A DNA stretch of 64,000 nucleotides from Candidatus Marinacidobacterium sp. (GTDB lineage: Bacteria; Acidobacteriota; Vicinamibacteria; Marinacidobacterales; Marinacidobacteraceae): positions 2,720,001 through 2,784,000 of the forward strand of contig OZ242011.1 of assembly GCA_965204755.1 (NCBI GenBank), given 5' to 3'. The translations under genes were made by a program, and so were the position numbers. Shown piece after piece: positions 1-3,000 of the stretch. Each line of letters begins with the position of its first letter. The first letter of the stretch is position 1. The notes under the pieces were generated by a model. The model was not told the origin of the DNA. It made no database searches and was given only the letters and a program-made list of their open reading frames with translations.

Positions 1-3000
1 CGACGACTTGGGGCGAGTTGGCGAAGCGGCGACCCGAACTGGTCGTTCCCGACGAGGTGCCGCCGGATTCGCCCTTCGTGACTGTCCTCGATCCGGCCAC
101 CGGAACGGGGACCTTTCTGGTGGAAGTGATCGACTGCATCCACGGGCGGCTGACCCGGAAATGGAGGGGGAACGGCGGTTCCGAGGATCAGGTGAAGGAA
201 CGGTGGAACGCCTATGTCGAAGAGCACCTGCTCTCGAGGCTCTATGGGTACGAGTTGCTGATGGCGCCCTATGCCATGGCGCATCTGACCATCAGCCTTA
301 AGTTGCGGGAGACCGGTTTCACCTTCGGCGCCGACAGCCGCGCCCATGTCTATCTCACGAACACCTTGGAGCCGCCTCACGATCACACCGGTAAGTTCGA
401 GTTCGCGATCCCCGCCTTGGCGCTTGAATCGAAGGCCGTGAGCGTCACGAAGAAGGACAGACGCTTCACGGTCGTTCTCGGGAATCCGCCCTACTCGGGG
501 CACTCGGCGAACAAGGGGAAGTGGATTCGCGATCTTCTTCACGGTCGGGTCGGAGAAGAGCGGGATATGGAGGACTACTTCTCGGTAAGCGGGAAGCCGC
601 TGGGCGAAAGGAACCCGAAGTGGCTGAACGACGACTATGTGAAGTTCGTTCGCTACGCGCAGTGGTTGATTTCCCGCGCGCGGTTCGGAATCCTGGGGTT
701 CGTCACCAACCACAGTTTCCTGGACAGTCCGACCTTTCGCGGGATGCGCGAGAGCCTGATGAGGTCTCGGCAGGTCCATGTCCTGGATCTGCACGGGAAC
801 ACGAAGAAGAAGGAACGGACACCGGACGGCGCCGTTGACGAGAATGTATTCGACATTCAGCAGGGCGTCTCGATTTCGATACTCACGCGGAACGGAAGCA
901 CGGGGAACGGGGTTCCTGAGGTGCTGCACGCGGATCTGTGGGGTCGTCGGAATTCCGTTGGGGGGGGGGGGGGGGGGGGGCAAATATGTGTGGTTGGAGC
1001 GTCACACCGTCGAAACTACGGACTGGCGCCGGCTGGAACCGCGAGAGCCGTTCTTCCTCTTCGTGCCGCGTGACAACACGCTGGCGGAGGAGTACGAGAG
1101 GGGGTGGAGCCTTCCGGAGATCTTCCCGCTGAATTCGGTCGGGATCGTTACGGCGCGAGACAGCCTTACGATCCAGAAGACGCGAGAGGCGATGGAGGCG
1201 GTCGTTTCCGATTTTGTGTCCCGCGAGCCGGAGAAGGCGCGGAAGATCTACGGCTTGCGCAAGGACACACGAGACTGGACAGTGCGCAAGGCGCAGGCAG
1301 ACCTGCGCGAATCCCGCGGCGCGATTGTCCGAATCCTGTATCGGCCGTTCGATGTGCGATGGACTTGGTACTCTGGCCTTAGTAGAGGCTTCCTTTGCAT
1401 GCCGCGGTTCGATGTTATGCGGCACATGCTTTGCGAGAGAGAGAGAGAGAGAGAGAGAGAGAGAGAGAGAGAGAACCTCGCACTCGTCTCCACGAGACAG
1501 TGTCAGCGCGACTGGCATCCGCTCGCGGCCAGCATCATCGTCGGACATCACGCGGTCGAGTCCGTCGACATCAGTTCGGTCTTTCCCCTGTACCTCAAGG
1601 GAATCTCGGGTTAGTGTCGGTGCGGCAAGTGGCCGAGAACCTGTTCGATCATGTGTGCGTGAGCCGCTCGGTGGTGGATTTCCGTACGACCCTGAGCAAC
1701 AAGGGCGGCGCGTACCTGTTCCCGCTGTACCGGGAGGAAGACTCGCGCTGATCACATGTCGTCAAACGACCGGGAGCCGCGCGGAGTGGGCGCATTGCGC
1801 GGCGAGTCGGTGGATCGCGGAGTCCTGCGCGGTCTCGAACGCGACTCGGGAGATCGGATACCTGTTTCCGCTGTCCATGAGGACTGAGACAACGGGCGTC
1901 GGCCGTCCCCCGGCGCGCGTACCGAACCTGGCGAAGGCGTTCACCGACGCCATCGTGGAGCGGATCGGCTTGGAGTTCGTGGCCGAGGGAACCGGGGACC
2001 TGCGCTCGACAGTCGGGCCGGAAGCCATTTTCCACTACATCTACGCGGTCCTGTCGAGTCCGGAGTATCGCCGGCGCTATGTGGACTTCCTGAAGTCCGA
2101 CTTTCCGCGCGTGCCGCTTCCCGGCGGGCGGAGCATCTTCTCCGATCTCTCCGAAGTCGGGGAGCGCCTGACGCGCCTGAGCCTCATGGAGGCGCCGGTG
2201 GTCGGTAAGATCGCGTGGCGGCAAGCGCCGGGCGTCCTCATTCCCAACTGGTGCGTCGAGAAGGTGCGGTTCGACGAAGTCGAGGGAGAAGGCCGCGTGT
2301 GGATCAACCAGGGGGCCTGCTGCGCGGAGGTGCCGCGGGAAGTCTGGGAGTTCTCCGTGGGGGGATATCGGCCGGCGCGGAAGTGGCTGATGGACAGGAA
2401 GAACGACACGCTCGGGGACCGCGATCTCGAGCACTATCGGGTCATCGTTTCCGCTATCGGTGAGACGATCGAGCGGATGCGGCAGGTGGACGAGATCATC
2501 GAGACTCACGGCGGCTGGCCGGCCGCGTTCGAATCCACGGCGTCGAGCGAGGAAGTCGAAGTCCTCCCCTTTCAGCGGCTCGAGGAACTCCCGGAGGCGG
2601 CGGATCGGTATCGGGACTGCGTACCGCTCGTGCCGCTGGCGGCCGCGGCCGGAGCGTTCGGCGAGCCCCAGTTGGTGGACGAGGGGGAGGAGTTCGAGTG
2701 GGTTCGCGTGGACACGCGGCGGCGGCTTCGGAAGGGGATGTTCGTGGCGCAGGTCGTCGGGAAATCCATGGAGCCGAAGATCCCGGACGGCGCGTGGTGC
2801 CTCTTCCGGTCTCCGGTGACAGGAACGCGGCAGGGGAGGACGCTCCTGGTGCAACTGCGGGACGCCGTCGACCCGGACACCGACCAGCGCTACACGGTGA
2901 AGCGCTACGAGAGCCGGAGGGTGCGGCGCGGCGACAGTTGGCGCCACGAACGCATCCGGCTCCTTCCGCTGAATCCGGAGTTCGACCCGATCGAGATCGG

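Follow-up and report, generated by a model that had tools for sequence, protein, structure and literature searches.

Why would a bacterium keep three diverged versions of one segment of a DNA-modifying enzyme in tandem, each in a different reading frame, directly behind a dinucleotide repeat? This question is raised by a methyltransferase (MTase) gene at the beginning of a 64,000-nucleotide (nt) stretch, here called the window, of Candidatus Marinacidobacterium sp. (GenBank assembly GCA_965204755.1, contig OZ242011.1, positions 2,720,001 to 2,784,000 of the forward strand). Its genome (G000) is complete, with 3.98 Mb and 71.7% GC, and was found in sponge and marine metagenome runs (12 runs). 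The reading that we favor as the probable one, with appreciable room for doubt, is that the (GA)20 tract acts as a frame selector, so that a recognition element of a restriction-modification (RM) enzyme is multiplexed over three frames, with a split recognition domain and differing DNA specificities. The frame selector appears well supported by comparative evidence, and homology alone suggests the three specificities.

An earlier note, made from the letters of the window, had described (GA)20 and three diverged modules starting at 1474, 1602 and 1739 in different frames, and had placed the modules inside the C-terminal domain of Type ISP enzymes. Tandem Repeats Finder, Pfam and MAFFT confirmed this description, and all three modules, hereafter cassettes, were located on the Type_ISP_C profile (PF18135), where they represent one segment of about 45 amino acids (aa) at profile positions ~109–156. 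Three PF18135 matches were obtained, spanning window positions 982–1611 (profile 1–152, E 5.7e-26, 91.8 bits), 1395–1748 (profile 109–156, E 9.6e-4, 18.8 bits, alone under the bit-score cut-off of 25.9) and 1739–3052 (profile 116–340, E 9.3e-46, 156.9 bits). Cassette 1 is contiguous with profile positions 1–108 upstream and cassette 3 with positions 157–340 downstream, and only cassette 3 is in frame with the remaining 392 aa. The triplication of the cassette is beyond chance. The unit arithmetic of the note also follows from the coordinates: cassette 1 is in frame with 17, 20 or 23 GA units, cassette 2 with 19 or 22 units after 42 read-through codons, and cassette 3 with 18 or 21 units after 88 read-through codons. 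As for the choice among three DNA specificities that the note had proposed, all three frames are indeed used, but cassettes 1 and 2 each run into a stop after 6 codons and only cassette 3 continues.

Evidence that all three cassettes are maintained was provided by G001, a genome of the same genus, in which the orthologue lies in the same neighbourhood and carries G21 (there in frame), (GA)20 and all three cassettes, each again in a frame different from the others. The DNA of G000 and G001 aligns without gaps from ~1068 to 1890 at 71–80% identity, with indels on either side, and the flanking protein is 62% identical. Within cassettes 1, 2 and 3, the substitutions at the third position of the cassette's own frame numbered 17 of 32, 17 of 27 and 19 of 40, respectively (binomial P 0.016, 0.0015 and 0.044; counts by position in Table 1). 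The dN/dS ratio (Nei-Gojobori, G000 vs G001) was 0.18, 0.15 and 0.30 for the three cassettes in their own frames and 0.12 for the flank, whereas the other frames of the cassettes gave 1.05–2.57. The periodicity of GC content at third codon positions (GC3) agrees with the own frame of each cassette. The substitution bias in the own frame, together with the low dN/dS, indicates that every cassette has remained protein-coding in its own frame from the divergence of the two species onwards.

The same design was found a second time in a sister genus. In an order-wide screen, 22 of 55 genomes contained PF18135, and matches split at the cassette borders were detected in G000, G001, G009, G004 and G015; the cassette array is present in four of the 22 genomes, and G015 has a C10 tract directly behind its cassette, an arrangement that is plain on/off. 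The genes of G009 and G004, the two members of the sister genus, are classical Type ISP genes with long single open reading frames (ORFs) of 1485 and 1504 aa, and exactly where G000 has (GA)n they contain (GCCA)12 or (GGCA)4, behind which a pair of cassettes occupies two different frames. Cassette A shares the frame of the C-terminus, to which it is joined via 38 read-through codons, and cassette B lies in another frame with a stop after 9–22 codons. The substitutions between G009 and G004, counted by position, were [7,2,16] for A and [1,15,4] for B (P 0.0016 and 0.00017), and the synonymous/nonsynonymous codons were 13/6 (A) and 14/5 (B) in the own frames, compared with 2/17, 1/18, 2/15 and 0/18 in the other frames. 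The combination of a repeat with staggered tandem modules, which the earlier note had proposed to search for among homologues, recurs in G001 and, with other types of repeat, in G009 and G004.

Natural variants among metagenome proteins are consistent with a change of tract length accompanied by a change of frame. The proteins P0123 and P0239 (943 aa) read (SRAEQ)3-4 VYPNLAV...FPLY.YQTSL and end after cassette 1, while P0242 (1428 aa), from the same 90% cluster, reads (SRAEQ)2 S, followed by ~95 read-through residues, a type-3 cassette, the C-terminus and an S24 domain. The read-through peptide of P0242 is codon-compatible with the +1 frame of P0123 cassette 1 in 46 of 46 codons, and the genetic code would allow SRAEQ to be encoded by a perfect pentanucleotide repeat. 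Similarly, termination after cassette 1 is seen in P0135 (RTGQDRT, a period of 5 residues) and P0251 (PPPPP, then NLAII...), and P0250 (PPPP, then read-through) is a fused form of 1430 aa; codon compatibility between P0251 and P0250 is lost after 21 of 46 codons, which would be expected of diverged strains. These proteins represent two more distantly related lineages (~50% identical) that have the layout in common. Within the lineage of G000 itself, P0122 contains (ER)5, compared with 13 codons in G000, followed by cassette 2 out of frame, and P0238 (929 aa) has the short tract ERGERE, lacks cassette 1, and has cassette 2 in frame with a stop behind it; the tract of P0122 would correspond to (GA)15 and that of P0238 to an interrupted repeat. 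In all, at least five kinds of repeat occur at this one site, including (GA)n and (GCCA)n/(GGCA)n, peptide periods consistent with (AGCAG)n and (GGACA)n, and poly-C read as PPPP/PPPPP. Tract length differs between relatives with a matching change of the open frame in P0122 vs G000, P0123/P0239 vs P0242, P0251 vs P0250 and (GCCA)12 vs (GGCA)4. A search with the N-terminal part plus cassette 1 among proteins of similar length returned 64 proteins, none above 57% identity, and no more GA-length variants, and the P0251 lineage was not found in 401 genomes of the phylum (12 matched at E up to 1e-50, among them G365, with a single cassette, and G300).

Two observations on homologues concern the origin and fate of cassettes. 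The protein P0173 (1164 aa, NCBI/ENA, 495-kb contig) contains three different tandem cassettes, all in one frame, and may be an intermediate in the origin of such arrays. In G300 (L056, G300:C1:1813332-1819001), an IS630-like transposase gene lies inside the cassette of an otherwise intact homologue.

What the cassettes do is suggested by their variation and by solved relatives. Cassettes 2 and 3 are 28–30% identical to cassette 1 in the MAFFT alignment, and the cassettes are 33–35% identical pairwise; each is closer to the single cassette of some other homologue, cassette 1 being 60% identical to single cassettes of other homologues, cassette 2 81% to that of P0050, and cassette 3 61% to those of P0161, P0041 and P0018. 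Judged from these identities, the cassettes are distinct natural types and not recent duplicates. In an alignment of 39 homologues, ~10 discrete cassette types (counted by eye) were distinguished between the NLxL..R and FPLY flanks. Four Latescibacterota orthologues have backbones that are 79–93% identical with cassettes that are only 30–42% identical, and the cassette block also differs between L006 and L007, which belong to one genus. Such divergence of cassettes on similar backbones would be expected if they were exchangeable specificity modules.

For a structural placement, cassette A of G009 was aligned to LlaGI chain residues 1177–1220, corresponding to 1341–1384 with an offset of 164, to LlaBIII from 1343 and to DrdV 777–817; as a check of the offset, H1368, G1372 and Q1373 of LlaGI fall on H, G and Q. 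In LlaGI (PMC4872093), this region contains a beta-hairpin (1347–1358) and Loop VI (1365–1374), and H1368, G1372 and Q1373 read target position +3. The DrdV preprint names D803 and K807 among five base-contacting residues of the recognition domain. Cassettes A and B of G009/G004 differ exactly at the contact sites (PDL-E-LVS-K-GQC vs PDL-H-FLE-F-GQC), and the G000 cassettes occupy the same Pfam profile positions as the G009 cassettes. By homology, the cassette would therefore be a specificity element comprising the beta-hairpin and the Loop VI segment. The cassettes form a sub-domain and do not amount to entire target-recognition domains.

Since cassettes 1 and 2 run into stops, the question arises how these two states could be active. 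The C-fragment that follows the cassettes has 15 related clusters (387–417 aa, 61–97% identity), whose called starts lie at or just before the Met after FPLx; this Met is conserved in the present clade and not in single-cassette homologues. A 388-aa C-fragment, P0004, is encoded on the same 422-kb contig as P0238, and this pair fits a separately made C-fragment. In a search of genome and metagenome contigs with the C-fragment, 19 and 21 loci were found, at most 48% identical in the best segment, and close relatives may be left out of this result. Complex prediction of the N-terminal part plus cassette 1 with the C-fragment gave an ipSAE of 0.89 in 3 of 3 runs, with a best value of 0.00 among three controls, 159–179 contacts, at least 87% agreement between runs and a partner pLDDT of at least 88. 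In the calibration of this prediction, which used author-made alignments as input, 58 of 80 solved pairs and 2 of 110 mismatched pairs attained the mark. The two parts appear compatible at the point of the split; as both belong to a single domain for which solved relatives exist, likeness may account for the positive result. The large predicted interface indicates that the N-protein needs the C-fragment, and a split recognition domain is plausible.

Taken together, the proposed mechanism would operate as follows. A one-unit slip in (GA)n moves the ribosome to the frame of cassette 1, 3 or 2. With n = 18 or 21 a fused full-length enzyme results, in which 88 read-through residues are inserted before cassette 3, and with n = 20 or 19/22 the product ends 6 codons past the cassette. 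The C-fragment may be translated alone from the conserved ATG at 1877, the truncated N-proteins may assemble with it into a split recognition domain, and the three states would then differ in DNA specificity. The upstream G21 would serve as an independent on/off switch. In the sequenced allele, G21 moves translation out of frame 3 and into frame 1, so that the first 773 aa are not in frame with any part of the gene 3' of the tract, and this allele encodes no full-length product (an OFF state). Both tracts lie in the reading frame with unit lengths that are not multiples of three, as in repeat-driven contingency genes, and in run X9 four Logan contigs of 38–41 nt, with 0–2 gaps, span G21 and give a weak hint of length heterogeneity.

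A broader version of this proposal, which we put forward tentatively and hold to be somewhat less than an even bet, is that frame-addressed arrays are a convergent and general specificity switch of Type ISP/IIG-like enzymes, with 2–3 targets and all states active as a split enzyme, and that the S24 domain may be a RecA-triggered safety catch limiting self-restriction after a switch.

Several points weigh against the frame selector and its split enzyme. The products with n = 20 and n = 19/22 lack the last ~390 aa, including the remaining recognition domain, and, judging from the structural model, the N-protein would probably be unable to fold or to bind DNA by itself; the truncated states would work only if the C-fragment is supplied separately. 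No Shine-Dalgarno-like motif was found 5–16 nt from the ATG at 1877, in a check that used crude start guesses and in a genome that uses such motifs in a minority of genes; the 16S 3'-end motif was searched for in the genome and not found, and no promoter-like site was detected in 1300–3300. In view of this lack of ribosome-binding and promoter signals, separate expression of the C-fragment is putative. Exactly G21 and (GA)20 are present in both G000 and G001, which is unexpected for hypermutable tracts and could be a coincidence or a preferred length. The frames from (GA)n to each cassette are stop-free, as the earlier note had stated, but as evidence this carries no weight: with genome-wide off-frame stop densities per codon of 0.019 (+1 shift) and 0.0016 (+2 shift), all of the required read-through stretches would be open with a probability of ~0.455 x 0.94 x 0.94 = 0.40, so that open frames are not significant and are expected by chance. 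Selection was measured on two species pairs, the repeat units of the metagenome proteins were derived from peptide periodicity and not from DNA, and the more divergent cassettes of G000 were placed on Loop VI by Pfam coordinates and flanking motifs and not by direct structure alignment. The public data of the 12 runs are contigs with breaks at both repeats; in the four runs that were aligned, the Logan contigs end at 1426 and restart at 1484, and so do not span (GA)n. Finally, in a phylum-wide screen 52 of 401 genomes contained PF18135, and only G000 showed the signature of overlapping profiles; no repeat and no cassette array were found in G236, G386 and G055. In the samples searched, the frame-cassette design is rare outside this bacterial family.

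Part of this evidence would also suit a plain ON/OFF switch, in which only the cassette 3 frame works and cassettes 1 and 2, left over from earlier replacements, now act as an inserted linker. Frame 2 alone leads on into the C-terminal 392 aa, most of the packing partner is missing from the truncated products, and the truncated state was often the one assembled (G000, G001, P0123, P0239, P0135 and P0251), as if OFF were common. However, relics would not keep an own-frame dN/dS of 0.18 and 0.15 with values of at least 1.05 in the frame supposedly read, cassette B of G009/G004 is likewise selected in its own frame, and P0238 has cassette 2 directly in frame behind a degenerate repeat, so that we regard ON/OFF switching of this kind as unlikely. 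The additional cassettes could otherwise be a silent store, moved by recombination or deletion between the NLxL..RQ and FPLY flanks, with incidental frames. Cassette swapping is evident between close orthologues, the P0122/P0238 lineage lacks cassette 1, P0173 has its three cassettes in one frame, and direct repeats of one family are found at the FPLY-coding ends (1570, 1707 and 1853). Against such a store, deletions cannot be reversed and would not keep unexpressed copies under selection, the flanking segments are short and only 62–66% alike in DNA, no second PF18135 donor locus was found in the genome and no recombinase was seen nearby, and the five different repeats at one site are left unaccounted for. 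We consider this explanation quite improbable.

The frame selector could also act through expression-level slippage on (GA)n or G21, whereby one allele makes three isoforms at once. A 2026 preprint describes continued partial expression, through frameshift suppression, of Mycoplasma bovis mod gene constructs that were frameshifted in (AG)n (10.64898/2026.04.01.715767), and the identical tract lengths of G000 and G001 would fit a selected optimum, but the variation of tract length among relatives with matching changes of the open frame is a signature of the DNA level. As the sole explanation, slippage during expression therefore seems very unlikely, and it may add to DNA-level switching. An artefact, that is, false staggering of frames by indels of assembly or sequencing, might be suspected in a single-contig long-read genome with many error-prone long homopolymers. 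Nevertheless, identical frames were found in three other, independent assemblies (G001, G004 and G009) and are also indicated by the metagenome proteins, a contig from run X3 covers 1484–2000 without gaps, and the codon-position signals match the staggered frames, so that an artefact can be given practically no weight. Selection among the cassettes by DNA-level changes of the repeat accordingly remains our preferred reading.

Phase-variable methyltransferases have been treated as on/off, and multiple specificities have been thought to need recombination of duplicated specificity genes. One reported precedent for slippage that alters RM specificity, beyond mere off-switching, is the Type I system NgoAV, in which a poly-G tract in hsdS reportedly changes specificity by truncating HsdS to one recognition domain (Adamczyk-Poplawska et al. 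2011). That system is not known to have alternative cassettes or a three-way choice.

A close likeness is seen with C-terminal phase variation, described by Snyder et al. 2010 in Helicobacter canadensis (via PMC5320596) and by Zelewska et al. 2016 in Neisseria gonorrhoeae (PMC5320596). In the cases given in the latter, an in-gene repeat switches the residues behind it among three frames, and in one of them the ends differ between two of the frames and the third frame is fused to a downstream coding sequence. The tails described there are unrelated, whereas the present cassettes are homologous versions of a sub-domain, each under purifying selection, in an RM recognition domain. Recombination in Type I hsdS loci also offers several specificities at one locus with stochastic choice and modular exchange (PMC7394358, PMC7557576), but it needs inverted repeats and usually a recombinase, and here the selection is by reading frame. 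In agreement with the recombinase-free switch of the earlier note, and in contrast with a recombinase-driven shufflon, no invertase or recombinase was seen among the neighbouring genes, and the inverted repeats around the cassettes were only 14–20 nt matches at 80–88%, none convincing. In the phasevarions of Type III mod, Type I and Type IIG systems, a repeat in the methyltransferase gene likewise sets the frame by its length; these are described as ON/OFF, with specificity differing between the alleles of strains and not between the frames of one allele (PMC5909438, PMC7383803, PMC4889913). We found no description of repeat-selected alternative recognition cassettes in the accessible literature, including a 2025 review (PMC12707154), with supplements outside the search. 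The locus is classed as repeat-driven phase variation, with the one-cassette-per-frame arrangement as the new part.

The locus and its relatives suggest a third route to multiple specificities, in which alternatives of a base-reading loop are placed one per frame and a one-unit slip re-targets the enzyme. If this is true, it would represent a new logic for bacterial contingency loci and epigenetic heterogeneity and a natural three-frame multiplexing of one protein segment, it would explain the routine annotation of such genes as frameshifted pseudogenes, and it would offer, on a single backbone, a compact natural series of Loop VI variants for sequence-to-specificity work in Type ISP/IIL enzymes.

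The positions of the individual elements are listed in Table 1. As far as its domains indicate, the locus is a two-gene Type ISP-like RM system, in which the nuclease-helicase is a separate protein. The MTase gene starts ~1230 nt 5' of the window, and its MTase part matches Pfam Eco57I (3.6e-7) and N6_Mtase (3.5e-5) and the PADLOC model REase_MTase_IIG PDLC03610 (9.7e-85), to which the C-fragment also matches (2.3e-33). Within the first 410 aa, Pfam gives N6_Mtase only and no nuclease domain, and the first ~175 aa have no family match. Like the solved Type ISP/IIL relatives, the enzyme has a gamma-class N6-adenine MTase and Type_ISP_C, with the cassette corresponding to the hairpin and Loop VI with their base contacts. 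Unlike the relatives, which are single chains with one fixed cassette, G000 has a separate HKD+SNF2 protein and an S24 domain. Thus, the NPPY-containing MTase and PF18135 seen in LlaGI and LlaBIII, which are Type ISP enzymes, are present and their one-polypeptide organization is not, while the Type IIG model of PADLOC covers both the MTase and the recognition domain, as in Type IIG/IIL enzymes.

Table 1. Elements of the methyltransferase gene by position in the window, with substitutions between G000 and G001 counted by position modulo 3
Element	Position	Strand	Frame and content	Identified by	Substitutions at mod 3 = 0,1,2	Own third position
MTase gene, N-terminal part	1..959	+	frame 3; gamma-class N6-adenine MTase, NPPY motif GNPPYSG ~481-501			
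G21 homopolymer	960..980	+	inside the gene, Gly run	Tandem Repeats Finder		
Type_ISP_C, first part	982..1433	+	frame 1; profile ~1-108, end ...VMRHMLC	Pfam		
(GA)20	1435..1474	+	read (ER)n or (RE)n in any frame; proposed frame selector	Tandem Repeats Finder, 100% matches		
Cassette 1	1474..1614	+	frame 1; NLALVSTRQ...VFPLY, then 6 codons and TAG 1612-1614	Pfam, MAFFT	[17,9,6]	mod 0
Cassette 2	1602..1751	+	frame 0; NLGLVSVRQ...YLFPLY, then 6 codons and TGA 1749-1751	Pfam, MAFFT	[7,3,17]	mod 2
Cassette 3	1739..1876	+	frame 2; RLALITCRQ...YLFPLS, runs on into the remaining gene	Pfam, MAFFT	[8,19,13]	mod 1
C-fragment	1877..3055	+	frame 2; 392 aa, ATG 1877-1879, stop 3053-3055	Pfam		
Flank			frame 1		[61,24,20]	mod 0

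The stop TAG of cassette 1 overlaps a GTG in the frame of cassette 2 (TAGTG, window 1612–1616), and this overlap could allow termination-reinitiation. The C-fragment contains the remaining Type_ISP_C (to ~2480) and a Peptidase_S24/LexA-like domain (GKSMEP...VKR, window 2660–3037); the fusion of this domain to the MTase C-terminus is common to a clade of 1310–1430-aa homologues, and RecA-stimulated self-cleavage as restriction alleviation is a speculation on its role. On the 5' side of the MTase gene, a 1042-aa ORF encodes the HKD/PLD and SNF2 helicase protein (PADLOC 'HKD+Snf2' 1.8e-55; Pfam PLDc_2 and Helicase_C), and a 597-aa Fic/DOC-domain protein is encoded just 5' of it (L080 1457–3247; genome ~2713457–2715247); the neighbouring ORFs thus comprise the Fic protein, HKD-SNF2, an M24 peptidase and an oxidoreductase-like protein.

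Other repeats in the genome point in a similar direction. We counted 37 G or C homopolymer tracts of 14–34 nt and four long dinucleotide repeats, a repertoire that is unusually large for a 4-Mb genome of 72% GC and suggests many contingency loci. The repeats (CT)23 (genome 2149853–2149898) and (TC)12 (2134976–2134999) are (GA)n on the coding strand, read (ER)n, and sit at the same position in two paralogous large methylase-like genes, each now split into two frames; these two genes look like plain on/off switches. Within the window, on the minus strand, a C17 tract (59076–59092, in 59053–59092; G17 on the coding strand, read GGGGG) lies at the junction of ORFs of 1054 aa and 634 aa, which are probably one large repeat-rich surface protein gene split by this tract.

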